This document shows positions 16,254 to 52,551 of a DNA stretch of 64,000 bases, piece after piece. The notes under the pieces are model-generated. The model was not told where the DNA came from, did no database searches, and worked only from the letters and a program-made list of their open reading frames with translations. Both the position numbers and the translations under genes were made by a program. The DNA comes from a virus: IMG/VR virus record IMGVR_UViG_3300027969_003137, positions 23,519 to 87,518 of that record. One strand, written 5' to 3'. Every line of letters starts with the position of its first letter. Within the stretch, counting starts at the first letter, position 1.

Positions 16254-16550
16254 ATGAAGAAGCTAGTTATAGCATTGTTAATTGCAGGTGCAGGTGTTAC
16301 ATCGGCACACGCAGACGGGTATCGTCATCACGGTGGACATTATCGTGGAGGAAACGGTTGGGGTTGGGTAGCACCGTTAGCTATTGGGGGAGTTATTGGT
16401 TATGAACTTAACCGCCCCCGATACTACGACCCGCCAGTGATTGTACAGCAACCAATCTACTCGGTAACCACATCTCAAAACTGCACAGTTTGGACTGAAA
16501 CCCAATATGCAGATGGTACCATAACACGTACTAGGACTTGTACACAATAA
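16254..16550 (+). CDS. Exported Gly/His-rich protein
   Basis: Signal peptide MKKLVIALLIAGAGVTSAHA; AAGGAGA SD. Confidence 0.75.
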   Translation: MKKLVIALLIAGAGVTSAHADGYRHHGGHYRGGNGWGWVAPLAIGGVIGYELNRPRYYDPPVIVQQPIYSVTTSQNCTVWTETQYADGTITRTRTCTQ

Positions 16551-17590: not shown

Positions 17591-20500
17591 ATGGCAAGAA
17601 AAATTATTGATACCGGCGTTGTAGGCAACGACGGCACTGGCGACAGTATACGAGACTCATTCCGTAAGGTAAATGACAACTTTAGAGAACTTTACAGTTC
17701 GTTAGGTTTAGGTGAGAAGCTTACTTTTAAAAATCTAGACGATACTCCTAGCAGTTATCTTGGGCAAGAAAACGCATTACTTGCCGTTAATAATACCGAG
17801 ACAGGAGTTGTTTTTAAACAGTTAACTCCGGGCTCTGGTATCAGTTTAGATTTTACTACCAACATAAACGAAATTAGAGTTAGCTCTGAGTTTTCGGAAG
17901 TTGTTGGAGATTCTAGTCCTCAACTAGGCGGAAATCTAAGTGCAAGATCTGGAGGACTACAATATAGAATTTTAGATCTAGGAACTAACGCACTTCCTAT
18001 CACCCCACTATACGAACACGAAGCTGTTAATAAACGATATGCCGATAGCAAAATTGCTAGAGCAGGTGTTGATACAGTAGATCCTAGAACTGGGTTAACT
18101 AACAGTTCGTTTGGTAGAATGAGCGGACCTCTTATACTTTCTAGAGATCCTGAACCAGAAGACGATGATATTTATGGCGGATTAATTGCTGCAACTAAAA
18201 GATATGTAGACAATTCAGCTTTTGGCAGTTCAGTAAACTTGTATGTTGCAACTTCTGGTCAAGATGATAGAGTTGGGGTTAGTGCTGCTCTACAAGGTCG
18301 TGCATTGGCCTATGCCTATCGCACGTTGGAAGCTGCGCTTAAACGGGCAGAGGAAATAGTATTAGAAGCCAGAAACGAAATTGGTCCTTACAAAAAAACA
18401 TTAACTTATAATAATGGTGCAGCAGAATGTACCTTGGATGACATAACAGACGCTCCCGCCAGTGGTTCTGGGTTTAGCGGATCACCGTTAATGAGTGTGG
18501 ATTCAGTAGTTGTTAATAATGTTGGTGTGAACTATAGACCAGGTGATATACTGACTGTTGTCGGTGGAGCATTTGTTCAGCCAGCTAGAATTGAAATATT
18601 ATCAACCACTGAAGCGGGCGGTGCATTAACATTTAGAATATTATCTACTGGTGTTTACAGCAGTTTACCTCCTACCAACACCAATGTGGCCACTACTGAT
18701 GACAGTGCTAACGGACAACTTGCCACACTGAATCTAACCTATAGAGTCAACAATGTTGTGGTAAATGCTGGTGGAAGTGGCTACGGACTTGTATCTGTTA
18801 GAATTTCAGGTGGTGGCGGGTCAGGTGCATTTGGAACTGCTGATGTCCTTAGCGGCATTGTTCAAAGTATTACCATAACTGACCAAGGTTCTGGTTTTAC
18901 CAGCTTACCTGTGGTATCAGTGTCTCTTCCAAGATTCTTAATTAATACTGACGGATACCGAACAGACTTTACAGGTGATGTGACCACATCAACTCCAAGT
19001 GCTGTTAGAAGCAGAGACATTCGAGAAGGTCTGTATCTTCGAGGTGAATCATCAGGTGCACTGGCACAGATACTATCTCACCAAGGTGCATTAGATAGCC
19101 TCGGCAACGAAATTTTTGATGTGGATCTAAAGTACGGAACTTTTGTGATTGGCGAAGTAATATCTTACGGCGACGTTGCAAAAAATATTCAAATTAGTAT
19201 ATTAGTAGAAACTGGTGTCTACGAAGAAAATTTACCCTTAAGACTTCCCAACAACGTGTCTATTATTGGTGACGAATTTAGACGTTGTATTATTAGACCC
19301 AAGCCAGGCATAAGTTCAAGTCCTTGGGCGTTTTTGCATTTTAGAAGAGACCTATCAGTGGGTGTTGCTGGCACTGACTTGATAACACTAACTGATAGAC
19401 TGTTTGGATATCACTATCTCCAAGACACATCACAGCCCATTTATCCTCTAGTTAACAATCGAGGCTTTTATAGATCAGCTGCACAGCTCCTACAATTAAA
19501 TCGTGTGTTCATACAAAAAGAAGTAGTGGGCTGGATAGCTGATCAAGTGGCAGAAGAAATTTCTCCGTTCACTGCTGCTTTCTTGTACAACAGCGAAACT
19601 TGTGAAAGGGATGTAGGACTTATTATTGACTCTATGATATTTGATTTGAAGTGGGGCGGCTCAAATAGAACCATATCATCGGCACTTAAATATTATGGCA
19701 ATGCCAGCGGATTAATTGCAATCAATGCTCAACTATCACAGACTATTGCGGCTATTCGACGACTGGGCACACTTGCTCAACTGGTTATTCGAAATGTAGA
19801 AATCCAAGAACTTTATCAAGATGCCTATCCTCAAATCATAGACGGTGCCTATATTGCTGAAGTTGGTACTACCGGAACATCATTTAATATTACCGGAGTC
19901 ACTAACGCCAACCCAATTGCAATTACTACCGCTACTGCTCACGGACTAGCTTCAGGCAACCAAATTTTAATTAGTGGAGTAGGTGGTACCACACAAATCA
20001 ATGGCAACGACTATTATGTCACTGTTATAAATGCAACATCATTTTACATATACAGTGATGCTGCAAGAACAATTTCAGTTAGCGGTGTAACCTATGGAAC
20101 ATATACATCCGGCGGTAGTGCCGTTAGTATTGGCGGAGTGGTAGGTGCATTAATTAATGTTGTTATTGATGTCATTGATAATTCAGGAAGTGTTAACTAT
20201 CCTAAAAATAACGACGAGATGGACGTTATATTGTGTAATGACGCTGTACGTATACAGTCAATCACATTCCAAGGGCATGGCGGATTTGCCATGGTACTTG
20301 ATCCAGAGGGCCAGATCCTTGCCAAATCTCCATACGCTCAAGAGTGTGCGTCGTTCTCAAAGGGAACTGGGGCTCAGACGTTTGCAGGCGGCCAATACAT
20401 TGACGGCTTTACCGGCAACTTAAAATTTAAAATTCTAAGTAAAGATTCAAATACGTTCTTGCGTGTGGGCGAGTTGAAGCGCATACCTCAACTGCCTGCT

Positions 20501-23500
20501 TCTTTTATTGTTGAAGACACAGTATATAGAATTAACTATGTTAGAGACTACACATTTAACACAGCAGGTTCTACAGCGTCATTTGTTCTAGATGAAACGA
20601 CTCCTTGGCCGTTTGATTTATTCACCTACAACGAAGCTATCTGCTCTAGAGACGTTGGCCTAATTTTAAATGGCGTTGGCTATGACGTTGTGTTTGGCAC
20701 TAATTATCATTCTAGACGATCTGGTTTGACCTATAGACTGGCAGCTGCCAGCGTGGTCATCGAAGATCAATTAGATTTAACTGTTCGAGCAATAGAAGAA
20801 GCGCACACACTGGCATCTAATTATTTGACATTGTATCCTACTGCGCAGTCAATTGTCGAGACCAGTAAAGTCAATATTGCCAATATTGTTAGAAATGGTA
20901 GTACATTTGCAGCGGCTTTATCGTTTACAAATCCTCCTGGGCTAGCAGCTAATAGAGTCAACGCCAGTTCATTACTGCAAGCAAACATTCAATTTATCAA
21001 AGATGAGACTGTTGGATACCTAGCCTCTACCTACCCCTCACTGTCATTTAATCAAACAACCTGCGCTCGAGATGTTGAGTACCTTGTTGAATCATTGATA
21101 TATGATATTTTGTATGGTGGTAATAGTGAAACTAGAAAAGCAGGTATCAAATATTGGGATGGAGTAGGATCTGCGGCTGTATTGCAAGTTCCTGTAGGAC
21201 AACAAGCACAAACTGCCGACGGCATTAACTATGCCAAATATCTAGCCAAGCAGGTCATTGTTAGTCTAGCTCCTACTATCTCATACACAGCTACTCCAAG
21301 AGTGGGTGGCTCTGCAAGCGATGGTGCCATTCAATCTGTAATCGAAACATTGTTAACTAATGTTGCAGCCATTGTGACCAGCGGTGTAGGATCTGCTACT
21401 GCTGAAACATTGCCTAACCTGGGGGCATACGCATATGCTGGGACTGCTATAACTGCACGTACAATAATTAACACAAATAAAACTGCCATTCAAGCGGCAG
21501 TAATTACTTTTGTAAATGAAAATGCCAATGCCTACGAAGTACTGATGCCTGGTAATAGATCGATGTTGTCCAACGACTACACGCAGATCAATGACCTAGG
21601 TTATGGTATTGTGGTCAACAACGGTGGATTAGCAGAATGTGTGAGTATGTTTACCTACTACTGCCATATCTCATATTACTCGATTGGCGGTGGACAGATT
21701 CGATCAATTGGCGGATCAAGTGCTCACGGTAATTTTGCACTAGTTGCTGAAGGTAGCGATCCTCTAGAAGTTCCAACTCCTGTGTCAACATATTACGATC
21801 TTGCTCAAGGAGCAAGATGTTATTTCCCTTCAGGATCATATGCCAACGTAGCAGGCGGGCTATCAATATATGTTACTAACTATACATATCCGCCGTCACC
21901 AAATTCAGAATTAGAAGTCGACCACGGTCTTGGAACTATATTTAGATATCCAATTACTGGAGTATCTACTGATGATTCGTTGCCTGCTGGAGTGGCAAGA
22001 CTAAGTCTACGAAGTTCCGAAGGTGCAGGCATCACCGGTCTTGCAGCCGTAATTGCCAACACCACTATATTAACCATTAGACAAAACTCCACAGTGGTTC
22101 TAACTGGCAATGCCGTGGACGTTGCTGTTCGACCAAGTACTGGACTAGTGCTTGCTGAGTCCCCTGAAGTATATCGAGTGCTACAATTTGAAGCATATGC
22201 CGACCCTGTGGGTGCTAGAACTATTACTATTGCCCTAGGTACTCCTGGAATTATAACCAGAGCATCTCATGGTCTTCAACCAGGATATCAAATTGTTATT
22301 ACCACAACTGGTGCATTGCCTACAGGATTAACAGCAGGTATAGTTTATTATGTACAGTCAGACGGCTTCACTGCAAATAGTTTTAGACTAGCTACAACAA
22401 AACGTGGTGTTGCTATTAATGCAACCGGCAGTCAAAGTGGGACCCATTCCTACACAGTATTTGGTCTTGCGCAGACCACACTGAGAGAAAATTACAACTA
22501 TATCGATATATCATTATATCCAGAGCAACCATTTGTGACTGCTCCAAGGGTGTGTACAATTTCCATTGCTAATCCTGCGGTAGTTACATTAACCAGTCAC
22601 GGATTTAGTGCAAACAATGTTGTTAGATTTACCACAACTGGTGCATTGCCTAGCGGAATTTCACTTACTAGACTGTATTTTGTTAAAACGGTATTAGATG
22701 CAAATACATTTACCATAACAGATATTGCAACCAGCTCGTCATTACCATTAGAGTGTACGGGAATTCAATATGGTGTCCAACGTGTAGGTCTAGTAATAGG
22801 TCGTGCAGGAGATAGTACTGTTGCCATTGTGCCAATCAGCGGTGCAGAAGAGAATCGAGTCCTTGGTACCAAGATTGTGTACAAAGGTGTAGAGTACACC
22901 GTGCAGGCCTATCAGAATGAAACAACAACTGGAGATAATTATGGATTGATAACTGTCAGCCCTGCGTTATCAAACTCTTTGATTTATTTTACAAGTCTGC
23001 CAACTCTTAAATCTGCGGTACCAAAAGACGAACCAGGCACACTCACAATTAGGATTTCTTTAACTCGTGTGACTTCACATGATCTATTAGAAATTGGTAC
23101 TGGCTCTTATGCCGATACAAATTATCCAAACGAAATTTATGGTCCGGCAGTTAACGCACTAGATCCAGATTCTGAAACTCAAGAGCGTAGTGTAGGTCGA
23201 GTTTTCTATGTGACCACTGACCAATTTGGTAATTTCTCTGTTGGTCCATACTTCCGTGTTGACCAAGGTACTGGTAGTGTGACTTTTGCGGCGTCAATTG
23301 CGCTGTCGAATCTAGACGGTATTGGTTTTAAACGAGGTGTTCCAGTAAGTGAATTTTCAACTGACAGTTCGTTCAGTGACAACGCCACTGACACAGTACC
23401 GACAGAAAATGCTGCAAGAGGCTATATCGAACGTAGATTAGGAATCAGCCATACTGGTGCTGTATTGCCCTTGGGCACATTGATCCCGGCATTCAGTGGC

Positions 23501-24937
23501 GGGTATATGGCTCTTGACGGCCAATTGGCCATGAAGTCCGATATGGATCTAGGCAATTTTAAAATTAGGAATGTGGCGGATCCAGTAAATCCAACCGATG
23601 CCCTCAATCTTAGAAGTTTAACTCTCAACAACTTAGTTGACTTTCAAGCCACTAATCCGCGAAGTGGTGACATTTTAACATTTACTGGTGCAGGGACATT
23701 TGCGCAGAACTCTGCGGTGGTAGGAGATATTAGCCTTAATATTGATTCTACTGCCAACACAGTTGATATTCAGATTAATCCAGGTGTAATTATTGATGCC
23801 GATATTAACAATGCTGCTAATATTGTTCAAAGTAAATTGCTGTTATCATCTGCTACAACTAGAGCAAATGCCGCTGGCATAACACAGGCAGAAAAAGGCA
23901 TATCCAGTTTTGATAATGCGCAGTTTGATGTCACTGACGGGTGGGTCACACTAAAAGACAACGGTGTTAATTTAACAGACCTTCCACAGATTGCAACTAA
24001 AACAGTGCTAGGCAATTCAACTCTGGCAACTGCTAACGTATCAGCTGTGCTGTTCAGCACAGTAGTCAATGACGGTGGCGCCATTAAGAAATCACAGTAC
24101 AATGGCGGAACTGGCTATCTAAGAAGAATTGGTTTTACTTCTACTAATGACGCTGACTATGCTATTGTAGACGAATCTACCAGCGTTGCTGCAAGCACAT
24201 TGGTCAAGCGTGATGTCAACGGCGACTTTGCTGGTAGATTCGTCAGCATAGACAAACTCATTGTTGACACAAAAACCATTCTTGATACTACAACAACCTC
24301 AACAGGTGGATATACTCAGCTGTATGGATTTTCAAATAACGTTGGTATTTTAATTGGTGACGGAACTACCTTGCCTGATCGTAGAACATTCTACGACAAC
24401 GACTCACATACGTTTAGAACATACAATGGTCTGAGTAATGCTCCTATAACTGTAGGATCAATTACTACTCCAGTACTCACTACAGGTGCTGTTAGCTCTG
24501 GTGGTACAATAACTGGTCTTTGGGGGCTAAGTTCTGGTAGTAGATTAACAGCTACCTATGCAGACTTAGCTGAATACTACGAAGGCGATCGTGAATATGC
24601 AGTTGGAACTGTGTTAATATTTGGTGGAGATAAAGAAGTCACTATGTCGTCAACGTACGGGGATCATAAAGTTGTTGGCGTGGTCAGTGATACTGCTGCA
24701 TATATTATGAATGAACAATGCGCCGGCACAAAAAATCTAGTAGCATTACAAGGTCGTGTGCCCTGTAAGGTAGTAGGAAAAATTAACAAAGGCGATTTAA
24801 TAGTAACATCCAATATTCCAGGTGTTGGTATATCAGCAGGAGGCAATGCCAAAACTGGTACCGTTATTGGTAAGGCAATAGCAGATTACAACTCAGATCA
24901 CATTGGCACTATTGAAGTTGCCGTAGGAAGAACATAA
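17591..24937 (+). CDS. Giant virion structural protein (baseplate/tail-associated, 2448 aa)
   Basis: T4 gp9/gp10-like N-terminus GNDGTGDSIRDSFRKVNDNF; GSGY/GSGF repeats; FCCH-like THGL repeats; C-terminal ADLAEYY...GRVPCKV...IGKA chaperone-like domain. Confidence 0.85.
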   Translation: MARKIIDTGVVGNDGTGDSIRDSFRKVNDNFRELYSSLGLGEKLTFKNLDDTPSSYLGQENALLAVNNTETGVVFKQLTPGSGISLDFTTNINEIRVSSEFSEVVGDSSPQLGGNLSARSGGLQYRILDLGTNALPITPLYEHEAVNKRYADSKIARAGVDTVDPRTGLTNSSFGRMSGPLILSRDPEPEDDDIYGGLIAATKRYVDNSAFGSSVNLYVATSGQDDRVGVSAALQGRALAYAYRTLEAALKRAEEIVLEARNEIGPYKKTLTYNNGAAECTLDDITDAPASGSGFSGSPLMSVDSVVVNNVGVNYRPGDILTVVGGAFVQPARIEILSTTEAGGALTFRILSTGVYSSLPPTNTNVATTDDSANGQLATLNLTYRVNNVVVNAGGSGYGLVSVRISGGGGSGAFGTADVLSGIVQSITITDQGSGFTSLPVVSVSLPRFLINTDGYRTDFTGDVTTSTPSAVRSRDIREGLYLRGESSGALAQILSHQGALDSLGNEIFDVDLKYGTFVIGEVISYGDVAKNIQISILVETGVYEENLPLRLPNNVSIIGDEFRRCIIRPKPGISSSPWAFLHFRRDLSVGVAGTDLITLTDRLFGYHYLQDTSQPIYPLVNNRGFYRSAAQLLQLNRVFIQKEVVGWIADQVAEEISPFTAAFLYNSETCERDVGLIIDSMIFDLKWGGSNRTISSALKYYGNASGLIAINAQLSQTIAAIRRLGTLAQLVIRNVEIQELYQDAYPQIIDGAYIAEVGTTGTSFNITGVTNANPIAITTATAHGLASGNQILISGVGGTTQINGNDYYVTVINATSFYIYSDAARTISVSGVTYGTYTSGGSAVSIGGVVGALINVVIDVIDNSGSVNYPKNNDEMDVILCNDAVRIQSITFQGHGGFAMVLDPEGQILAKSPYAQECASFSKGTGAQTFAGGQYIDGFTGNLKFKILSKDSNTFLRVGELKRIPQLPASFIVEDTVYRINYVRDYTFNTAGSTASFVLDETTPWPFDLFTYNEAICSRDVGLILNGVGYDVVFGTNYHSRRSGLTYRLAAASVVIEDQLDLTVRAIEEAHTLASNYLTLYPTAQSIVETSKVNIANIVRNGSTFAAALSFTNPPGLAANRVNASSLLQANIQFIKDETVGYLASTYPSLSFNQTTCARDVEYLVESLIYDILYGGNSETRKAGIKYWDGVGSAAVLQVPVGQQAQTADGINYAKYLAKQVIVSLAPTISYTATPRVGGSASDGAIQSVIETLLTNVAAIVTSGVGSATAETLPNLGAYAYAGTAITARTIINTNKTAIQAAVITFVNENANAYEVLMPGNRSMLSNDYTQINDLGYGIVVNNGGLAECVSMFTYYCHISYYSIGGGQIRSIGGSSAHGNFALVAEGSDPLEVPTPVSTYYDLAQGARCYFPSGSYANVAGGLSIYVTNYTYPPSPNSELEVDHGLGTIFRYPITGVSTDDSLPAGVARLSLRSSEGAGITGLAAVIANTTILTIRQNSTVVLTGNAVDVAVRPSTGLVLAESPEVYRVLQFEAYADPVGARTITIALGTPGIITRASHGLQPGYQIVITTTGALPTGLTAGIVYYVQSDGFTANSFRLATTKRGVAINATGSQSGTHSYTVFGLAQTTLRENYNYIDISLYPEQPFVTAPRVCTISIANPAVVTLTSHGFSANNVVRFTTTGALPSGISLTRLYFVKTVLDANTFTITDIATSSSLPLECTGIQYGVQRVGLVIGRAGDSTVAIVPISGAEENRVLGTKIVYKGVEYTVQAYQNETTTGDNYGLITVSPALSNSLIYFTSLPTLKSAVPKDEPGTLTIRISLTRVTSHDLLEIGTGSYADTNYPNEIYGPAVNALDPDSETQERSVGRVFYVTTDQFGNFSVGPYFRVDQGTGSVTFAASIALSNLDGIGFKRGVPVSEFSTDSSFSDNATDTVPTENAARGYIERRLGISHTGAVLPLGTLIPAFSGGYMALDGQLAMKSDMDLGNFKIRNVADPVNPTDALNLRSLTLNNLVDFQATNPRSGDILTFTGAGTFAQNSAVVGDISLNIDSTANTVDIQINPGVIIDADINNAANIVQSKLLLSSATTRANAAGITQAEKGISSFDNAQFDVTDGWVTLKDNGVNLTDLPQIATKTVLGNSTLATANVSAVLFSTVVNDGGAIKKSQYNGGTGYLRRIGFTSTNDADYAIVDESTSVAASTLVKRDVNGDFAGRFVSIDKLIVDTKTILDTTTTSTGGYTQLYGFSNNVGILIGDGTTLPDRRTFYDNDSHTFRTYNGLSNAPITVGSITTPVLTTGAVSSGGTITGLWGLSSGSRLTATYADLAEYYEGDREYAVGTVLIFGGDKEVTMSSTYGDHKVVGVVSDTAAYIMNEQCAGTKNLVALQGRVPCKVVGKINKGDLIVTSNIPGVGISAGGNAKTGTVIGKAIADYNSDHIGTIEVAVGRT
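22299..22652 (+). repeat. 24-nt exact direct repeat inside the giant structural gene
   Basis: TTACCACAACTGGTGCATTGCCTA at 22299-22322 and 22629-22652, encoding TTTGALP. Confidence 0.9.
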
Positions 24938-44105: not shown

Positions 44106-44598
44106 ATTAGGACCCTATAACAGCCTATCGCAAACAAGCACTGAATGGCTATTTGATACGTCCGAGTCAATTGCTCAGGCTCGAGAGCTTGAAGATGCTA
44201 TGATAAATTTTATGGTGGCAAATAAAGGCATTGGACTTGCTGCCAATCAGATCGGTATAACTAAACGTGTGTTTACCATGGGCAGCAACAATATTGAAGG
44301 ATTCCCCTTTCCCTTTGCTGCATTTAATCCTAAAATTATAAGTGCCGGCTCTGAAGAAGATTTAACTGAAGAAGGATGCCTAAGCTATCCTGACCTATGG
44401 TTAAAAGTTAAAAGACCTACAAACATTGTTGCAGAATATCAAGACTGTGACAGTAATACACATACCGTTGAGATGTCTGGCTTAATTGCTAGATGTTTTC
44501 AACATGAATTAGATCATCTAAATGGTGTGTGTTTTGTTGACAAAGTATCACCTATGAGATTACAATTAGCTATGAAGAAGTTAAGGAAAAGGAAATAA
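44095..44598 (+). CDS. def: Peptide deformylase
   Basis: [24 protein letters not shown]. Confidence 0.96.
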
Positions 44599-46934
44599 TG
44601 ATCGAACCGAGCCAAAATTTACAACAGATTTTTGATAATGCTGTGTCAGTTGCTAAAGACATGCAACATGAATACATCACAATCGAACATCTTGTTTACA
44701 GTATCATGTGTGATCAAGAATCATACCAAATCATAGAAAACTATGGTGCTGATGCTAATTTTATTAAAACAAATCTAGATCATTATATAAAAAATAATCT
44801 TAAAGAAATTATTGTTAATGAAACAGACCATAAACCTAAAAAGACCAGTTCTGTAGAACGTGTACTGAATCGCTGCTTTACTCAAGTGCTGTTTAGCGGG
44901 CGGCAAAAGATGGAAGTTGCTGATATTATTATCAGCGTACTCAGCGAGAAAAATAGTTTTAGTTTTTACTTTTTAACAAAAGGTGGACTAACCAAAGACA
45001 AATTTGTTAAATACTTCCAAGAAAATATCGTTATTGATGAAGAAGACCATCCACCAATGCAGGTAACCAATAATAATCAGATGGAAAGAATCATTAATCA
45101 ATTCTGTACTAATCTTAGCCTACAGGCTAAACAACGTAAAATAGATCCCGTTATTGGGCGGGAAGAGGAACTTGAAAATATTCAATTGATTCTAGCTCGG
45201 CGTAGTAAGTGTAATGTCCTGATGGTTGGAGAACCGGGTGTAGGTAAAACTGCTATTGCAGAGGGACTTGCACGTAAAATCTTTGAAAAGAAAGTTCCTA
45301 AGTTTATTCAAGACCATCAAGTCTATACACTAGATATCAGTGCCCTACTTGCAGGTTCTAAGTATCGTGGTGACTTTGAAGAACGCATCAAAGCTGTATT
45401 AGCAGCATTAGAAAAGAAAGGCAAGATCATATTGTTTATTGATGAAGCACATATGATGCAAGGCGCTGGCGCTGCTAATAACAGCAGCAACGATATGGCC
45501 AATATGTTAAAGCCTATTCTTACCAAAGGTATTATTAAATTAATTGCATCAACTACTTGGGAAGAATATCGCAAGCACTTTGAAAAGGATCGTGCGCTCA
45601 TGCGTCGATTCCAACGTGTCACTATCGATGAGCCTACACCAGAGTTAAGTGTTAAGATTGTTAAGGGTATTAGAAAATACTACGAGCGGCATCACAATGT
45701 TAAAATTACAGATGCTGCTATTGATCAAGCCGTAAAGCTGTCTGTTAAATATATGGCAGACAAGAAGTTGCCCGATAAGGCCATTGACATTATCGACTGT
45801 GCCGCAGCACGTTATAAATTAAAAGACGATCCAGAAATGGAAGGAGTTGAACAACTAGTCGATGTTGAACAAATTACCTATGAACTTTCTAAGATGATCA
45901 ATATGCCTTTAGAAATGGTAGCACAAAAAGAAAGTAAAAATCTAGCAGAACTAGAAAGCGGAATGAAGTCTGCTGTTTACGGTCAAGATGGCGCAGTAGA
46001 TACATTACTAGATAAAATCTTTGTAGCACAAGCAGGTATGAAACAGCCTAATAAACCTATTGGCAGCTTCTTGTTCCTTGGCCCTACTGGCTGCGGCAAA
46101 ACAGAAACAGCAAAACAGCTTTCTGAAAAAATGTCAATGCCGTTAATACGATTCGATATGAGCGAATATCAAGAAAAGCACAGTGTTGCTAGATTAATTG
46201 GCGCTCCTCCGGGCTACGTGGGTTATGAAGATAATGCGGGGCAACTAATTACTAAACTACAAGAAATGCCTAATTGTATCTTGTTGCTAGACGAAATTGA
46301 AAAAGCTCATCCAGATGTTTCAAATATTTTGTTAGGCTTTATGGACAACGGGTTTGTGACTGGATCTAACGGCAAACAAGCAGACGGCCGCAATTGTATT
46401 CTTGTTATGACTTCAAATCTAGGTGCTAGGGACAATGAGAATAACACCATTGGCTTTGGTGATTTAGATAAAGACGGAGAGGATGATAAAGCACTTAAAA
46501 AGTTCTTTGCTCCTGAATTCCGCAATCGATTAGATGCTGTTATCAAATTCTCTAAACTTTCACAATCTGTTGTATCACAAATTGTTAAAAAGTTTATTGC
46601 TGAATTAAACAGTCAGTTGAAAGATAAGAATATCGAAATTACTCTAAATGCAGATGCAATAAATTGGTTATCCAATAACGGTTTCGATAAAAAGATGGGT
46701 GCTAGGCCGTTGGCTCGATTGATTGATAACAAGATTAAATCGCCATTAAGTCGTAAAGTGCTGTTTGGTGAATTGCAAAACGGCGGTAATATTGCAGTTT
46801 CAGTTGTTAACGGAGATTTAAATTTTGATATCGGGCCGTTTCTAACTAAGGAACAAAAACGGGCAATTAAACGAGGAACACCAACTGAGGTAGTACAAGA
46901 TGTATCAGAAAATACAGAAAACCAAGACAACTAA
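44598..46934 (+). CDS. clpA: ClpA-like Hsp100 ATPase
   Basis: Clp N-domain, two AAA modules (GEPGVGKT, GPTGCGKT), GAPPGYVG, IGF ClpP-docking loop, MGARPL. Confidence 0.93.
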   Translation: MIEPSQNLQQIFDNAVSVAKDMQHEYITIEHLVYSIMCDQESYQIIENYGADANFIKTNLDHYIKNNLKEIIVNETDHKPKKTSSVERVLNRCFTQVLFSGRQKMEVADIIISVLSEKNSFSFYFLTKGGLTKDKFVKYFQENIVIDEEDHPPMQVTNNNQMERIINQFCTNLSLQAKQRKIDPVIGREEELENIQLILARRSKCNVLMVGEPGVGKTAIAEGLARKIFEKKVPKFIQDHQVYTLDISALLAGSKYRGDFEERIKAVLAALEKKGKIILFIDEAHMMQGAGAANNSSNDMANMLKPILTKGIIKLIASTTWEEYRKHFEKDRALMRRFQRVTIDEPTPELSVKIVKGIRKYYERHHNVKITDAAIDQAVKLSVKYMADKKLPDKAIDIIDCAAARYKLKDDPEMEGVEQLVDVEQITYELSKMINMPLEMVAQKESKNLAELESGMKSAVYGQDGAVDTLLDKIFVAQAGMKQPNKPIGSFLFLGPTGCGKTETAKQLSEKMSMPLIRFDMSEYQEKHSVARLIGAPPGYVGYEDNAGQLITKLQEMPNCILLLDEIEKAHPDVSNILLGFMDNGFVTGSNGKQADGRNCILVMTSNLGARDNENNTIGFGDLDKDGEDDKALKKFFAPEFRNRLDAVIKFSKLSQSVVSQIVKKFIAELNSQLKDKNIEITLNADAINWLSNNGFDKKMGARPLARLIDNKIKSPLSRKVLFGELQNGGNIAVSVVNGDLNFDIGPFLTKEQKRAIKRGTPTEVVQDVSENTENQDN

Positions 46935-47586
46935 CCGTAAGTTTTACGGCAAGTGGTTATACAAGGTTTCCGTTCATGCTCCGGGAGTAGCCATACTGAG
47001 ATCTAAATCTCCTCCCGAAGCAATAGCATTTTTAAATATGCCTATGCCTGACAACTCGTACAGACACAGTTTAATTGTTAAAGCACATACTAATGCAAGT
47101 TTGTTGACAAAGTTGTTTAAATTCTTAGAACCAATACCTGCAGAGGAATGGACTAAGCGTATAGAAACTAATCAATTTGATTTTTATACCAATAGTAAAA
47201 GTCTCTATGAACAATTTTGCAAAAAATTTGCTAGTATCTTGGTACAAAATTTTGAACCAGAAGAAGATAACTTAGAATTATTAAAAAATCAGTATACCAT
47301 TATAGTTAAAAATCTACCACATAAAAAATATCAATACAAAGCATTCCTTAAACCCCACAAAATGAAAGGTGATATTGATGCTAAACACAAATATATCCAA
47401 TGGGTAGAAATGCAGGGAGACAAAGTTAGGCTTACTCCCATTGTAAAAGAGTGGTTTATTAAAACTGAATGGAACTGGGATCGTAGGTATCTATTGGTCG
47501 AAGACGCATCAACCTTGCTGATGCTACAAATGCGCAGCGGAGAAGCTATAGGCAAGGTATATGAATACGTTGTAGTCGATAAATAA
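46900..47586 (+). CDS. Hypothetical protein
   Basis: 228-aa ORF. Confidence 0.7.
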   Translation: MYQKIQKTKTTNRKFYGKWLYKVSVHAPGVAILRSKSPPEAIAFLNMPMPDNSYRHSLIVKAHTNASLLTKLFKFLEPIPAEEWTKRIETNQFDFYTNSKSLYEQFCKKFASILVQNFEPEEDNLELLKNQYTIIVKNLPHKKYQYKAFLKPHKMKGDIDAKHKYIQWVEMQGDKVRLTPIVKEWFIKTEWNWDRRYLLVEDASTLLMLQMRSGEAIGKVYEYVVVDK

Positions 47587-47589
47587 GAC

Positions 47590-47946
47590 ATGTCCACTGA
47601 AACTATAGTTCTGTTATCGAACATCACAGCCGAAGCACCTGATTCCACGTATACATACAGCAATAAACAACCGGGTGCTGGATATCATCGTCAAGGTGAT
47701 GGGTTGCACACTGCTGTCTACACGGTTAATGCTTTTATTGGCTCAGTAAAACTTCAAGGCACACTGGCTTTATACCCAGCTGACACCGATTGGTTTGATA
47801 TAGATGGTACAGATATAGGGCTTGGTTCTGATAGTTCTGCATGGACTACTACAAATTCTATTAATTTTACCGGGAATTTTGTATGGCTACGTGCTGCATA
47901 CAATGTACAGAACGGTACTATTACAGAAATCCGATATAATTATTAA
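47590..47946 (+). CDS. Probable virion structural protein
   Basis: TAAATA box upstream; beta-rich, LQGTL...P...DWFDI...FTGNFVWLRA. Confidence 0.65.
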   Translation: MSTETIVLLSNITAEAPDSTYTYSNKQPGAGYHRQGDGLHTAVYTVNAFIGSVKLQGTLALYPADTDWFDIDGTDIGLGSDSSAWTTTNSINFTGNFVWLRAAYNVQNGTITEIRYNY

Positions 47947-47993
47947 CTGATATCATTCGATAAATATAGTATGACCTTACGGAATCGTATTAT

Positions 47994-48332
47994 ATGCTAT
48001 TGAAAGAAATGTTTAGCCCTATGGGCGCACCAAAAGACGAACAGCCTGACATAGATTGGATCGGCGATCTCAAATTCTATATGGATAATAACGATCAAAT
48101 GCTGAACAAGCATTTTTTCCCTGCGGTTAAACGCCATAAAGAGCATCGTGGCAACCCTAATGCTTACAAAATTTACGTTCGTTCACTAGAAGGCTGCTTA
48201 GAAAGCTATTGCGAAAAGTACGAAGTTGAAGATTACAAAGAAAAGTTCCCTAAAGAAAAACTAGAGGAGTTGGCTAAACAAATAGTCACACAACAAGAAA
48301 AGTTTATGGAAAGAGGCGACTACGATAAATGA
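47994..48332 (+). CDS. Hypothetical protein, possible internal head protein
   Basis: N-terminus MLLKEMF; late box upstream. Confidence 0.7.
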   Translation: MLLKEMFSPMGAPKDEQPDIDWIGDLKFYMDNNDQMLNKHFFPAVKRHKEHRGNPNAYKIYVRSLEGCLESYCEKYEVEDYKEKFPKEKLEELAKQIVTQQEKFMERGDYDK

Positions 48333-49222
48333 AGCTTCTAGAATTATTTGAGCAATCGGGAAAAACTGCTGCCGTAGCGTTTGGTAGAATGAACCCACCT
48401 ACGATCGGTCACCAGAAGGTAGTCGAAGCTATCCTAAAACAAAAAGCAGATGCTCATTTTTTATTTGTTTCTCAAACTCATAAGGCAACTGGCAAAAATC
48501 AAACAAGATTAGAAAACCCACTACCCTTTGATATCAAACTGGGATTTATCCAGCAGGCATTTCCTAATATCGATATCGGAGATACATCTGTAAGCACAGC
48601 CATAGGTATTCTTCAGTATTTAGAAAAACAGGGCTTTGAGAATGTGGTCTTTGTATGCGGCTCGGACCGTGTGCCAAGTTTTACAGAATTGTTCAATAAA
48701 CAAAACGGGGTTGATTATAATCTCAAATCAATTAAGATTGTATCAAGCGGTGCTAGGGATCCCGATGCAGAAGGTGCCGAAGGCATGAGCGCAAGCAAAA
48801 TGCGAGCTGCTGCAATTGCTGGTGACATCGACACATTTAAAACAGGATTACCAGCAGGACTAAGTGGTGATGCTGAGGAAGTATTTTCTGCAGTTAGGCA
48901 AGGACTTGAGCCTTGGTTAAAACAAGAAACTGTGCCCGAAGGATGGAAAAGTAAAGTTGCTGGTGCTACATTAGCAGGAGCCGCTGCACTAGGTAGTGGC
49001 GGTGTGTATGCTCAAAGTTCAGGAGAAGATTATCTTCCAGACATAGTTGCACATGTGACATTTGAGGTTAACGGAAAAGAAATATCCAAAGACATCAATT
49101 TAGGAACACAATACAAGTCTCCAAAAGAGGCTTCCCAAGCCCTTGAAAAATTCTTAAAGTCTAAGGGTATTAAATTTTATGATTTTAGTCTTGAACGTGT
49201 AAAACCCAAAGACGATAATTAA
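48329..49222 (+). CDS. Cytidylyltransferase-like (HIGH family) protein with capsid-targeting-like N-terminus and C-terminal add-on module
   Basis: AFGRMNPPTIGH, NPL, VCGSDRV, RDPDAEG..GMSASKMR. Confidence 0.85.
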   Translation: MKLLELFEQSGKTAAVAFGRMNPPTIGHQKVVEAILKQKADAHFLFVSQTHKATGKNQTRLENPLPFDIKLGFIQQAFPNIDIGDTSVSTAIGILQYLEKQGFENVVFVCGSDRVPSFTELFNKQNGVDYNLKSIKIVSSGARDPDAEGAEGMSASKMRAAAIAGDIDTFKTGLPAGLSGDAEEVFSAVRQGLEPWLKQETVPEGWKSKVAGATLAGAAALGSGGVYAQSSGEDYLPDIVAHVTFEVNGKEISKDINLGTQYKSPKEASQALEKFLKSKGIKFYDFSLERVKPKDDN

Positions 49223-49248
49223 TTAAAACGGGTAATAAAGGGATAATC

Positions 49249-50247
49249 ATGAAAGCAAAAGAATTTATTATAGAACTTAAAAAAGAATCAAAGCCTAGAA
49301 ACTTTGTAGCCAAGAACGCCAAGATGGGCGGTGCTGGCCAGCACAAGGATAAAAAGAAAGCTGAAAAACAAGGTGATGTCAAACACAAGAATAAAGAGTA
49401 CGCAGAAAGTGTAGAGGAAGGCTGGAAAGATAAGGTTGCAGCCGCAGGACTTGCTGGTGCAATGGCATTCGGAGCTGGTGGGGCTCATGCTAGAGTTTCT
49501 GGAGATCAAGATCCTAGTATCAATCGATTAACCGGCAAACCTATTGCAACGCAACAAGCAACCGATGTTGCTCCTGCAAAAGCAGAAGCACCTAAAGGAT
49601 TTAGTAAAGAGTATCTACAGTCTGTAGTAGACGGTAAGCATCCAAGACCAATGGTTAGTGTTGAAAAAGCAAAAGAGCTATTGAAGAATATGTCAGAAGG
49701 CTCATTAAAAGAATTGTCTACTGAAAAGCTAGCACAATATAAAAAGGCAGCCTATGCGGATGCCAAACAGTCAGATGCAGACGGAAAGTACGCTCGTGGC
49801 GACAAACGGTTTAGTGGCATTAATAAAGCTACTAGCAAACAGTTTGACAACGATCTTAAGAAACATAGACAGCAAGGTGTGGCGGAGGCCGGTATGTACA
49901 CCAAGCCAGGTAGTCCGTCTGCCTACGATAGAGACTATCGTGCTAGCGTAAGTGGCATGGGTAAGAAAGACTCGTTAGCATATCAACAAGATGGCGGTGC
50001 TAACGACGAATATCCTAGTGAACCTAATCGTCCGTACCAAGCACCTCAAGACAGGCCAGTACTAAAAGGTTATTATTTCTACAATGTACAGCCTGGACAG
50101 GAAGATGATGCTGGAATGTACGGTGTCAAGAAAACTAAGTCAGGCAAGTGGGCAAAAGCCAAGTATTCAACTAGCGGCCGATCATTTGATATGCAGAAAG
50201 ATGGCGCTGATAAAGCATTTGGTGCAGGTAAATGGTGGTCTCTATAA
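49249..50247 (+). CDS. Modular putative internal head polyprotein
   Basis: MKAKEFIIE; modules bounded by VEEG, MSEG, LKEL and QGVAEA. Confidence 0.7.
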   Translation: MKAKEFIIELKKESKPRNFVAKNAKMGGAGQHKDKKKAEKQGDVKHKNKEYAESVEEGWKDKVAAAGLAGAMAFGAGGAHARVSGDQDPSINRLTGKPIATQQATDVAPAKAEAPKGFSKEYLQSVVDGKHPRPMVSVEKAKELLKNMSEGSLKELSTEKLAQYKKAAYADAKQSDADGKYARGDKRFSGINKATSKQFDNDLKKHRQQGVAEAGMYTKPGSPSAYDRDYRASVSGMGKKDSLAYQQDGGANDEYPSEPNRPYQAPQDRPVLKGYYFYNVQPGQEDDAGMYGVKKTKSGKWAKAKYSTSGRSFDMQKDGADKAFGAGKWWSL

Positions 50248-50453
50248 TGGACGAACTTGCTGATATCAAGCGTCTAGCAGGCATTACTGAGTTCAAAGGT
50301 CTACAGCCATACGGCGGCAGCAATATCAGTATTACAGGTATGACCAATCAAGAACTTGAACGCAAGCATGATATTAGACCCGGTTCACCGGAATGGTTTC
50401 AGTTATGGTTTTCAAAACCATATCTAACAGGCGAAAAAAAGGTAGGAAAATAA
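50247..50453 (+). CDS. Hypothetical protein
   Basis: MDELADIKRLAGITE...IRPGSPEWFQLWFSKPYLTGE. Confidence 0.7.
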   Translation: MDELADIKRLAGITEFKGLQPYGGSNISITGMTNQELERKHDIRPGSPEWFQLWFSKPYLTGEKKVGK

Positions 50454-50780
50454 ATGGTTGAGATAACAGAATCAGCAAAATTAAAGATTATAGATCTGCT
50501 GCTAGAAGAAAATAATCCTAAGCTGGCATTGCGCACCTTTGTACAAGGCGGCGGATGCAGTGGCTTTAGCTATGGCTTTACCTTTGATGAAGAAAAGAAC
50601 GAAGACGATTTTGAATTTCCCATCAACGAACAGTACAACGTATTTGTCGATGCGATGAGTATGCAATACTTGCAAGGTGCAGTTATTGATTATAAAGAAG
50701 AAGCAATGGGCAGTCAGTTTGTCATTAGCAACCCTAATGCCCAATCAACTTGCGGATGCGGGAGCAGTTTTTCAGTATGA
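50454..50780 (+). CDS. erpA: A-type Fe-S insertion protein
   Basis: [47 protein letters not shown]. Confidence 0.93.
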
Positions 50781-50854
50781 ACCCCAACCAGTATCCAGTG
50801 TATCCAGAAGACGATGGCCACGATCGTTATAGAAATCCCTATTCACCAGTGTGA
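50777..50854 (+). CDS. 25-aa peptide (absent from the ORF track)
   Basis: ATGA overlap with the erpA stop; [25 protein letters not shown]; fills the intergenic gap. Confidence 0.45.
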
Positions 50855-50863
50855 GATTATATT

Positions 50864-51484
50864 ATGAAGATAACAGAAATTTTAATCGAAGGTGTAGCAG
50901 GGCCAAAGAACTGCTGGCCTGGTCATAGAAAAGTTGGCACACAACCTGGCACGGGCAAGAATAAAGGCAAGCGTGTCAACGACTGCGAAAAGATTAAAGA
51001 AGCAGGTTCACCAGCACAGCAGGCAGCTATTGCTATTGCCAAAAAGAAAAAGCAAGGTGTGACGGAAGGCTTACACCAAGAATTTGACATGATTGAAAAC
51101 ATCATTGAACAGATTGCAGAGCAACATGCCGTTGACGTTGACCTTGTATGGGAAGATTTATCAACCCTTACAGATGATGAGCTATATGTGTTTGCAGTAA
51201 CATCAGAGATGGTCAACGAAGATTGGCAAAAGGCCAACAAGCGAGACAAGACTGACGGTATGAGCAAGAAAGCTGTCAATGCCTATCGTAGAGAAAATCC
51301 AGGGTCAAAATTAAAGACTGCGGTGACAACTAAGCCCGGCAAATTAAAGAAAGGTTCAAAGGCCAGCAAGCGCCGATCAAGCTATTGTTCTAGATCAGCC
51401 GGACAACAGAAAATGCATAATATCAGCTGTTCAAAAACTCCTGACAAGGCAATATGTAAAGCAAGGCGTCGTTGGAACTGCTGA
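50864..51484 (+). CDS. Modular putative internal head polyprotein
   Basis: MKITEILIEG; modules CWPGH..VG...VNDC, IKEAGSPAQQAAIAI, QGVTEG, VNEDWQK...RRSSYCSRS...ARRRWNC. Confidence 0.7.
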   Translation: MKITEILIEGVAGPKNCWPGHRKVGTQPGTGKNKGKRVNDCEKIKEAGSPAQQAAIAIAKKKKQGVTEGLHQEFDMIENIIEQIAEQHAVDVDLVWEDLSTLTDDELYVFAVTSEMVNEDWQKANKRDKTDGMSKKAVNAYRRENPGSKLKTAVTTKPGKLKKGSKASKRRSSYCSRSAGQQKMHNISCSKTPDKAICKARRRWNC

Positions 51485-51485
51485 T

Positions 51486-52208
51486 ATGAGAGCGCAAGAG
51501 TTTGTAGTCGAAAAGAAAAAACGTAAGCGTAGACCTCGGTATGCTGCCTACGGTCCGGGCCCTTACGGCGGCTACGGATACTATGCTGGCTACAGCGGAG
51601 ACAGTGGATCCGAAGGTGGCGGCGACGGGGGTGGCGGTGGCGAAAGTATAAATCATGAAGCCTCATACCCTGGCAACATCGGCATGATGGAGTTGGCCAA
51701 GTTTTTTAGTATGGCCGATGAAGAACAAAAAACCATGTTCAAGCAACTGCTAGAGAAAGGCAAGAAGGGCTTGGCTTGGAAACTGGTACAAGACATTGTG
51801 GGTGTTAAACTACAGGGGTCAGAATTCAATGAAGATGCCATGATGGGAAAAATTGAAGACGGCGGAAAAATTGTTCGCATATTAAAAAAACAACACAGCG
51901 TACCGTTTAGCGATGAAAAAAACTGGCTGTTGATTGATACTGATCCTGCCAAAGGCAACAAAGGTCTTGGACTTAAATGGGTTCCGGCAAGTACTAGATT
52001 TACCTGGGTACGTCCTTACAAAGAAACCGTGGATGAAAACTTTGCTGATGGTAAGAATCCGCAGGACAAAGGCGATTCAAAACGTCATGGCATTAATACT
52101 AAAGGATCAGTGAGTAGTCTACGAAAAACTGCCAAACAGGGCGGACGCAAAGGACAACTAGCACACTGGCTGGCCAACATGAAAGCTGGAAGGGCTAAAA
52201 AGAAATGA
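51486..52208 (+). CDS. Modular putative internal head polyprotein
   Basis: MRAQEFVVE; modules EASYPGNIGMME, FNED and VDENFADGKNP...AHWLANMK.G. Confidence 0.7.
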   Translation: MRAQEFVVEKKKRKRRPRYAAYGPGPYGGYGYYAGYSGDSGSEGGGDGGGGGESINHEASYPGNIGMMELAKFFSMADEEQKTMFKQLLEKGKKGLAWKLVQDIVGVKLQGSEFNEDAMMGKIEDGGKIVRILKKQHSVPFSDEKNWLLIDTDPAKGNKGLGLKWVPASTRFTWVRPYKETVDENFADGKNPQDKGDSKRHGINTKGSVSSLRKTAKQGGRKGQLAHWLANMKAGRAKKK

Positions 52209-52360
52209 GAGCTCACGAATTTATTTCTGAAAAACGCAAGATTCCCTTTGCGGGAGCAAAAGTTGGGCACAAAGAAGGCCCAGCAGGGCAGTGGCGCAAC
52301 AAAGGTCCCAAGGCAAATAAGCCCGCTAAACAGGGCGACCTAGTAGGCGGCGCTACTTAA
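52205..52360 (+). CDS. 51-aa basic peptide with capsid-targeting-like N-terminus (absent from the ORF track)
   Basis: MRAHEFISEKRKIPFAGAKVGHKEGPAGQWRNKGPKANKPAKQGDLVGGAT. Confidence 0.7.
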   Translation: MRAHEFISEKRKIPFAGAKVGHKEGPAGQWRNKGPKANKPAKQGDLVGGAT

Positions 52361-52374
52361 CTATAAATAATAGT

Positions 52375-52551
52375 ATGAAACTAAAAGAATTGTTCGAGAC
52401 AGCGTCAGGTATGGGTGCAGGAGATGTTGCTACCTTTATTAAGAACGGTTCTGGAGCGGGCGTGGGTACTCTTTTTGGGGGTAGTTATCAGCAGAAATCT
52501 GCCAAAAAACCCAAGGCAAAGAAGCCTCGCGAAAGTATATTAAGAAGATAA
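52375..52551 (+). CDS. 58-aa basic peptide with capsid-targeting-like N-terminus (absent from the ORF track)
   Basis: TATAAATA box, then MKLKELFETASGMGAGDVATF...KKPRESILRR. Confidence 0.7.
   Translation: MKLKELFETASGMGAGDVATFIKNGSGAGVGTLFGGSYQQKSAKKPKAKKPRESILRR

Follow-up and report, generated by a model that had tools for sequence, protein, structure and literature searches.

Internal signal-peptide-like modules in multi-module proteins of an uncultured giant T4-like phage, and a possible two-stage route from the phage head to host export

Results

Two adjacent genes share an internal signal-peptide-like module

We examined a stretch of 64,000 nucleotides, referred to here as the window, which forms the last 64 kb of the 87.5 kb virus record IMGVR_UViG_3300027969_003137, and found that two adjacent genes within it (gene 1 and gene 2) each carry in their interior a segment built like a bacterial signal peptide. 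The record was rated as 25% complete by CheckV, so that the full genome would probably measure about 350 kb. Nearly all genes of the window were located on the + strand, a T4-type family B DNA polymerase is encoded among them (phrog_262; E 1e-199), and the source is an uncultured giant T4-like phage. Among 50,697 GenBank phage records, blastn in its distant mode gave no match for positions 47900-50500 and tblastn gave none for gene 2, and no cultured relative was found.

The features of the two genes are collected in Table 1. In gene 1 the module is read as ..TVPE, then GWKSKVAGATLAGAAALGSGGVYA, then QSSGEDYLPD.., and in gene 2 as ..SVEE, then GWKDKVAAAGLAGAMAFGAGGAHA, then RVSGDQ... It was noted that the two positions from which the original prediction had read these segments, 48938 and 49414, are Glu codons, and that the basic start, the Ala/Gly-rich core and the A-x-A-type end which it had described are present in both. 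Each module opens with GWKxK, passes through the Ala/Gly-rich core and a Gly-rich break and closes with the A-x-A-type end, which is VYA in module 1 and AHA in module 2. The net charge of the n-region, with the free amino end left out of the count, is +2 for GWKSK and +1 for GWKDK, and Gly and Ala together account for 17 of the 24 residues of module 2. When all six frames of the 64 kb window were scanned, GW[KR] followed by an Ala/Gly-rich run was encountered at these two sites only, and a comparison of module 1 with the whole 87.5 kb record returned only itself and module 2 (63% identity over 30 residues; E 4.8e-8). Judged by their sequences, modules 1 and 2 are copies of one module.

A Sec-type signal stands at the N-terminus, whereas these modules start at residue 205 of 297 in gene 1 and at residue 58 of 332 in gene 2. 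Both are thus internal as had been claimed, although the placement in the middle of the protein does not apply to module 2, which is not central. An AlphaFold2 model of the gene 1 product placed module 1 between two confident domains, with a low-confidence helix at residues 205-219 and predicted local distance difference test (pLDDT) values below 50 at residues 200-232. What follows the two modules was confirmed to be unrelated, being a beta-beta-alpha-beta domain of 69 residues in gene 1, called passenger (i), and a stretch with ..DPSINRLTGKPIA.. in gene 2, which begins passenger (ii).

An internal translation start was considered for both genes and rejected, as no in-frame ATG or TTG occurs within 20 codons upstream of the modules or in their first 8 codons. 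The sole GTG near the modules, at residue 202 of gene 1, was found to have no Shine-Dalgarno-like sequence upstream.

Table 1. Features of gene 1 and gene 2 in the window (positions are those of the window).
Feature	Position	Strand	Description
Gene 1	48329-49222	+	Open reading frame (ORF), 297 residues, conserved
N-terminal tag of gene 1	48329-48352	+	MKLLELFE; ends in L-F-E
Nucleotidyltransferase domain of gene 1	48362-48922	+	About residues 12-198; NMNAT/PPAT-like fold
Putative head-protease site V-P-E	48932-48940	+	Directly before module 1; h-x-E precedes the module in relatives
Module 1	48941-49012	+	GWKSKVAGATLAGAAALGSGGVYA; gene 1 residues 205-228; signal-peptide-like
Passenger (i)	49013-49219	+	69-residue beta-beta-alpha-beta domain of gene 1, ..LPDIVAHVTFEVNGK..
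Gene 2	49249-50247	+	ORF, 332 residues, conserved
N-terminal tag of gene 2	49249-49275	+	MKAKEFIIE
Lys-rich basic segment of gene 2	49297-49404	+	Residues 17-52; DUF7230-like; phrog_1359, E 7.3e-6
Putative head-protease site V-E-E	49411-49419	+	Directly before module 2
Module 2	49420-49491	+	GWKDKVAAAGLAGAMAFGAGGAHA; gene 2 residues 58-81; signal-peptide-like
Passenger (ii)	49492-49698	+	RVSGDQDPSINRLTGKPIA..KELLKNMSE; gene 2 residues 82-150; ends at M-S-E site
Further modules of gene 2	49699-50244	+	Residues 151-332; QGVAE junction at 207-211

A glutamate precedes the module and exchangeable passengers follow it

We sought to characterize the module among related proteins. When residues 40-100 of gene 2 were used to seed a word-based search, 111 proteins were collected, of which 81 carried the module by a simple pattern, while an Ala/Gly-rich run was present in all 111 by a looser pattern; one further protein, P0084, was left out of the 81 as a false pattern match. 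Even with the bias of a search that starts from the window's own sequence, this conservation goes well beyond chance. The module was encountered at positions ranging from 49 to 477 of these relatives, behind differing N-terminal parts. Two window-seeded searches together collected 190 proteins and gave 175 pattern matches in 170 of them, including 161 of the type that starts with GW (GW-type); modules with twin arginines are referred to as RR-type. A profile of the 24-residue core gave 16 distinct matches at E <= 0.01 across 86 loci and records (940 kb).

The residue directly before the module was Glu in 81/81 proteins by the first pattern, in 158 of the 161 GW-type matches, and in all 14 core-profile matches that begin at profile position 1, where it stands directly before the Gly. 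The three misses among the 161 were artefacts of the pattern. The expectation that the module might not usually be preceded by a Glu in homologs, which would have spoken against the original prediction, was therefore not borne out. Counting this Glu as P1, position P3 was V, L, I or M in 155 of the 161, and P2 was variable among E, D, G and A, with E or D in 73 of the 81; VEE was the commonest tripeptide before the module (58/81). The GW-type variants retained K or R in their start. All 14 RR-type modules likewise showed, by eye, a Glu at a distance of 2-4 residues upstream of the arginines, with Lys at P3 in P0124.

The passengers were then listed across relatives, as had been proposed. Behind the 161 GW-type matches, passenger (ii), recognized by ..DPxINRLTGKPIA.., followed in 94 and passenger (i), recognized by ..LPDIVAHV.., in 42, while ..DGQGG[FY]TGG.. 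was found in 15, two further classes accounted for 5, and 5 were left unclassified, two of these being variants of passenger (ii). At least five unrelated passengers are thus found behind the module in relatives, and the point at which they are exchanged lies exactly behind the A-x-A, as in P0042 and P0099, where a gene-2-like module is joined to a gene-1-like passenger. Even if a reading as an export signal should be wrong, the module is a sharply defined and widely shuffled cassette boundary in giant-phage polyproteins.

Signal peptidase-like ends and twin-arginine signals in the same slot

The module ends were examined in the 26 distinct sequences that stand before R[VT].., and Ala was found at positions -1 and -3 in 26/26. 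Position -2 was filled by N (13), Q (4), H (3), A (3), S (2) and G (1), and position -4 was Gly in 20 of the 26. Signal peptidase I follows a rule of small residues at -3 and -1, and we know of nothing else that would select for A-x-A with a free -2. The core of about 12 residues falls within the 7-15 of a Sec-type h-region and is of low hydrophobicity. An N-terminal signal peptide of the phage's own, in the ORF at 16254-16550, reads MKKLVIALLIAGAGVTSAHA and then DG, with the same layout and the same AHA end. The product of this ORF is a small, secreted-looking protein with a mature part rich in Gly, His, Tyr and Arg.

A search with passenger (i) alone, which used neither length limits nor a word index, covered 1.84 billion representative proteins and returned 73 of them at E <= 1e-3; five (P0132, P0171, P0179, P0189 and P0191) are repeat proteins whose many weak stretches were judged unrelated. 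In the true matches a signal-like run ending in A-x-A, whether GW-type, RR-type or other, stood directly before the passenger. A subset carried a textbook signal of the twin-arginine translocation (Tat) type in this place, for example ..VEE, then DISRRGFLRGAGALAAGAALGATGANA, then Q... Of 10 such proteins tested, six scored above the 22.7-bit cut-off of the Pfam family TAT_signal, in each case at an internal position, and the other four reached 15.4-17.6 bits. In P0158 a 9-residue tag is followed at once by a Tat signal. A phage-encoded TatA was also looked for, and TatA_B_E gave no matches in G000-G003 or G005, compared to matches in 11 of 14 control genomes.

The clearest comparison was provided by the locus L035, which is syntenic with the window. 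Its ortholog of gene 1 (L035:5103-6011) is 78% identical and differs mainly in the 24-27 residues that separate the Glu from the A-x-A, where the canonical Tat signal DISRRGFLQGIGAAAGIGAAGTAQA (DISRRGFLQG..) takes the place of the window's GWKSKVAGATLAGAAALGSGGVYA. The L035 ortholog of gene 2 is missing site, module and passenger (ii) together, a cassette that corresponds to about residues 48-150, and aligns again over residues 151-213. These comparisons indicate that the slot holds interchangeable export addresses and that the cassette is accessory.

Several signals may occur within one chain, with three in P0174 and two each in P0176 and P0182, and no hydrophobic stop-transfer segment was found between them. 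These chains bear on a simpler explanation, in which the module would act in the producing cell as an internal signal-anchor or cleavable signal, leaving the N-terminal part in the cytoplasm while the C-terminal passenger crosses, in the manner of internal signals in eukaryotic virus polyproteins, with no route through the virion and no need of a packaging step. The basic residues before the core and the acidic ones after it correspond to such an N-in, C-out layout, and the N-terminal domains are of cytoplasmic type (nucleotidyltransferase in gene 1, sigma-70 region 4 and GNAT in relatives). However, with no stop-transfer segments, the multi-signal chains, if left uncut, would place passengers that are homologous to one another across the membrane from each other, and the acidic residues at P1 and P2 would cancel the basic start of the module unless they were cut away. 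Tat signals are not known to act from far within a chain, and tag-like N-termini common to head-core genes, described below, would be left unexplained. A signal used in the producing cell is therefore considered unlikely.

N-terminal tags, a head protease and a possible route to export

Six consecutive genes (48329-52551), beginning with gene 1 and gene 2, start with M[KR]xxE[FLI], and the only two other matches to this pattern in the 87.5 kb record are implausible as tags. The tag of gene 1 appears to resemble a capsid-targeting propeptide of T4. A tag-like N-terminus was found in 92 of the 103 Met-starting matches of the search with gene 2 residues 40-100, which is a biased sample, and a loose tag pattern was found in 24 of 53 Met-started passenger (i) matches with the module, compared to 31 of the 373 ORFs of G001. 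In G001 such N-termini were also seen on genes adjoining the portal, protease, scaffold and capsid genes, and the capsid protein has L-L-E and L-A-E sites in its N-terminal region, before the conserved core. The Peptidase_S77 family, to which T4 gp21 belongs, scored above its cut-off in five of five related records, three of which are at least 98% complete (165-364 kb).

T4-type and giant-phage prohead proteases are described as cutting after Glu in short motifs, with ITE-6 and LTE-619 of Alt among the examples given in the relevant passages (PMC5694885). Fusions to the T4 capsid-targeting sequence (CTS) are likewise described as being taken into heads, passed to the host when it is infected and able to refold there (PMC9026906), and post-translational export would depend on such delivery and refolding.

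These observations suggest a two-stage address. The N-terminal tag would bring the whole chain into the assembling head, where a gp21-type head protease would cut after the Glu of h-x-E, removing the acidic residues and leaving the module at a new N-terminus. On ejection the cut piece would accompany the DNA into the next host, whose export machinery would move the small passenger over the inner membrane, and signal peptidase I would probably release it. On this reading, to which we assign a probability of roughly 0.4, the tag loads the polyproteins, the cut gives each piece a fresh Sec/Tat-type signal, and the passengers would reach the periplasm before any expression of phage genes; the GWK module would be a phage-specific signal type without the twin arginines that is interchangeable with Tat signals. 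The full chain of head loading, cutting at Glu, ejection and export, drawn by analogy from the tags, the protease of the relatives and the multi-signal chains, stands at even odds or a little below in our estimation.

The same cut in the prohead could have another outcome, in which small signal-bearing pieces leave the head and are exported late in the producing cell, coupling a periplasmic function to head maturation. A precedent is found in T4, where core-protein fragments and propeptides leave the capsid once gp21 has cut them (PMC5694885), and the pieces are small, with about 10 kDa for the module and passenger (i). Late transcription would be in keeping with ATAAATA boxes of the window, if T4-type late promoters are used. 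A late gene with a plain N-terminal signal would do the same more simply, and the phage has such genes, which makes this outcome quite improbable. The ATAAATA boxes in question were recorded at 47579, 47960, 52363 and 52548, at 11-13 nucleotides before the ATGs at 47590, 47974, 52375 and 52559, and the ORF downstream of the ATG at 47974 starts at 47994. Read as T4-type late promoters, they would give leaderless or nearly leaderless transcripts, which is no more than suggestive. The exact T4 late promoter TATAAATA was encountered 2 times in the window compared to 4.8 expected by chance, and no enrichment was seen.

Among the tagged genes beside the head genes of G001 (L117) is one at 209963-210871, encoding a protein of 302 residues that starts with MKISELLVESQQLDE and then G, contains a long repeat region rich in Gly, Ala, Val and Lys, and may be a core or scaffold component. 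This Gly/Ala/Val-rich neighbor, together with the low-confidence helix that AlphaFold2 placed in module 1, would agree with a role unrelated to membranes, in which the module serves as an Ala/Gly-rich packing helix or flexible linker for head-core assembly and its likeness to a signal is a coincidence. Small-residue helices can mediate tight helix packing. The conservation of A-x-A, the swap with Tat signals that score above the Pfam cut-off and the exchange of passengers behind the A-x-A would all be left unexplained, and we find this account hardly credible.

How the modules compare with Sec and Tat signals

Several observations weigh against the two-stage address, and they were considered together. 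The first concern the signal itself. Both modules gave a Kyte-Doolittle (KD) KD19 value of 1.25, below the usual membrane-helix threshold of 1.6, and the summed Hessa-type free energy was +4.8 to +5.5 kcal/mol. The best 10-residue KD window averaged 1.75 over 52 distinct GW-type cores, compared to 2.96 for the N-terminal Sec-type signal of the phage's own. The modules of the window are also without a twin arginine, having K-x-K instead, and gave no match to Pfam TAT_signal (PF10518) at E <= 10; the number of PF10518 matches was likewise 0 in G000, G001, G002, G003 and G005. The remaining points concern the cut and the cargo. The match sets were seeded with the window's own sequences, so that the counts reported above are biased towards look-alikes, and the invariant Glu could simply belong to the module. 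The V-P-E of gene 1 has Pro at P2, which may make its fitness as a candidate cut site doubtful. A head protease gave 0 matches in the 87.5 kb record itself, which is a 25%-complete fragment without head genes. Finally, the fold of passenger (i), with no informative structural match, offers no hint of a periplasmic role.

The GW-type cores (1.75) were no more hydrophobic than the RR-type cores (1.74), contrary to the difference expected between Sec and Tat signals, which counts against a clean 'Sec-type' label. With a weak core and no twin arginine, the module fits neither Sec nor Tat cleanly; its core has the look of a Tat signal behind a start of another kind, and it may be either a Sec signal or a Tat signal with an atypical motif. 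As neither the N-terminal location of Sec signals nor the twin-arginine motif of Tat signals was found, we file it as a segment that appears to work like an export signal while being a member of neither class.

The weak core also bears on whether the module would remain uncut, as an N-terminal membrane anchor or insertion helix exposed by the protease, tethering the passenger or forming part of an ejection conduit. The Ala/Gly-rich composition resembles that of the weakly hydrophobic, releasable anchors of the signal-arrest-release (SAR) type. There is also a published analogue. However, the hydrophobicity of the core is too weak for a stable membrane helix, and an A-x-A with a free -2 and a Gly break (26/26) suits signal peptidase rather than an anchor. 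The cassette is dispensable, being missing from the gene 2 ortholog of L035, and its passengers vary, unlike a conduit part, while Tat motifs in the same slot indicate export of the passenger. We regard an uncleaved anchor as distinctly unlikely, and the ejection-conduit helix, which had been offered as the alternative in the original prediction, was set aside as the leading account, as a Tat motif would be senseless in a conduit.

Returning to the two-stage address, its parts differ in strength. The export-signal nature of the modules is well supported by their sequence features and can be held as quite probable, so that this portion of the original prediction gained from the signal-like build, the movable address and the Tat signals in the same slot, while the unmasking by a head protease stands by analogy.

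Domains, passengers and neighboring genes

The N-terminal domain of gene 1 matched phrog_3041 'cytidyltransferase' (E 3.7e-50) and, weakly, Pfam CTP_transf_like (19.2 bits against a cut-off of 21). AlphaFold2 modeled it with a pLDDT of about 90, and the best Foldseek matches were NadM, NadD and PPAT (E 7e-6 to 3e-4). If head packaging is true, a packaged enzyme of the NAD or CoA pathway would be interesting in itself.

Passenger (i) was modeled with a mean pLDDT of 81. Foldseek against the PDB gave no match at E <= 0.001, the best hits of VIA-align wide (Z 7.0; archaeal ribosomal proteins and PurS) lay in the tool's stated noise range, and gene 1 residues 200-297 had no usable match in the ESM Atlas. 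A guess from the sequence that passenger (i) might be SPOR-like received no support from these structure searches and was dropped. With Pfam at E <= 10, the module and passengers gave only a sub-threshold match to Flg_new (14 bits against 27). In gene 2, phrog_26930 matched residues 149-206, and DUF7230 was above the Pfam cut-off in the homologs P0047, P0061 and P0081.

Other domains were noted upstream of the export-signal modules in relatives, with sigma-70 region 4 in P0084 and P0174 (Pfam E 9e-18 and 5e-15) and a weak GNAT match in P0124, indicating that the same chains mix cytoplasm-type and export-addressed modules. The domain DUF6321 (Pfam E 7.8e-9) lies at the C-terminus of the tagged gene at 50864-51484 and is found again in P0098, where it follows a GW-type module. 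The gene at 50454-50780, which stands among the tagged genes, is itself without a tag and is syntenic in L035; by eye it resembles an IscA/ErpA-like iron-sulfur carrier (CGCGSSF and one further motif). Just upstream of the gene pair, an ORF of 778 residues (44598-46934) contains two Walker A motifs and has by eye the look of a double AAA+ ATPase of the ClpA/ClpB type. Farther upstream, an ORF of 2448 residues (17591-24937) with tail-fibre and virion-structural PHROG matches is followed by three ORFs of 821-895 residues, and together these are a structural block of the phage.

Discussion

For the tag, the cut and the ejection, the internal proteins of T4 (IPI, IPII and IPIII) and Alt are the closest working model by analogy. 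They appear to share with the proteins described here a short N-terminal tag ending in h-x-E, clustered and fast-evolving cargo genes and a protease of the gp21 family, the latter found in relatives of this phage. Each of the T4 internal proteins consists of one domain, is cut once or twice at its ends and acts in the cytoplasm, whereas the chains examined here are multi-module and have a putative internal cut that would expose an export signal. Head-packaged proteins with a known action in the next host's cytoplasm include T4 IPI and Alt and the RNA polymerases carried by N4 and phiKZ-like phages.

For the module itself, the closest model is provided by bacterial Sec and Tat signals, which are likewise built of three parts, have small residues at both -3 and -1 and place a Gly/Pro break ahead of the cut. 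The likeness to Tat extends in relatives to a full motif of the S-R-R-x-F-L-K type that is recognized by PF10518. Unlike these signals, the module is internal in the translation product, has K-x-K in place of the twin arginine, and carries a core as weak as that of the family's Tat-type members.

Two further systems were compared. In eukaryotic virus polyproteins such as those of flaviviruses, internal signals act during translation at the endoplasmic reticulum and alternate with stop-transfer segments. There, as here, one chain holds several modules with signal-like segments and signal-peptidase sites between them, but in the phage proteins no stop-transfer segment separates tandem signals, and a separate putative Glu-specific protease site stands before each. 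The SAR domains of phage endolysins and pinholins are N-terminal, uncut by signal peptidase and attached to lysis proteins. The module resembles them in being Gly/Ala-rich and weakly hydrophobic after a few basic residues, whereas it is internal, and its passengers matched no muralytic, holin or lysis family in Pfam, PHROGs or the fold searches.

The closest published case of a protease cut that leaves a hydrophobic N-terminus on an ejection protein is gp47 of SPN3US. The prohead protease cuts this head protein, and the mature fragment starts with a predicted hydrophobic transmembrane segment, for which the authors speculate about contact with the host membrane on infection (PMC5694885). As described there, gp47 is a single protein that a phiKZ-like phage cannot do without, its cleavage motif is A-x-E, and the passages on it report no signal-peptidase site or Tat motif; compared to that description, the module examined here is movable and dispensable, has an A-x-A end and alternates with Tat signals. 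In the literature searched, supplements not covered, we found no account of internal export signals in phage polyproteins or of a route from capsid to periplasm by way of host exporters. The arrangement would add internal export signals to the known protease-processed head cargo of phages, here in a form without the twin arginine that is swapped with Tat signals between close relatives.

If the two-stage address is true, it would explain the 'impossible' internal Tat and Sec-like signals in hundreds of uncultured phage proteins, and it would provide a natural post-translational test case for the export of ready-made proteins. It would also mean that these phages pre-load envelope-acting factors that work before gene expression and might be directed at competing phages, at nucleases of the periplasm or at stress in the envelope.

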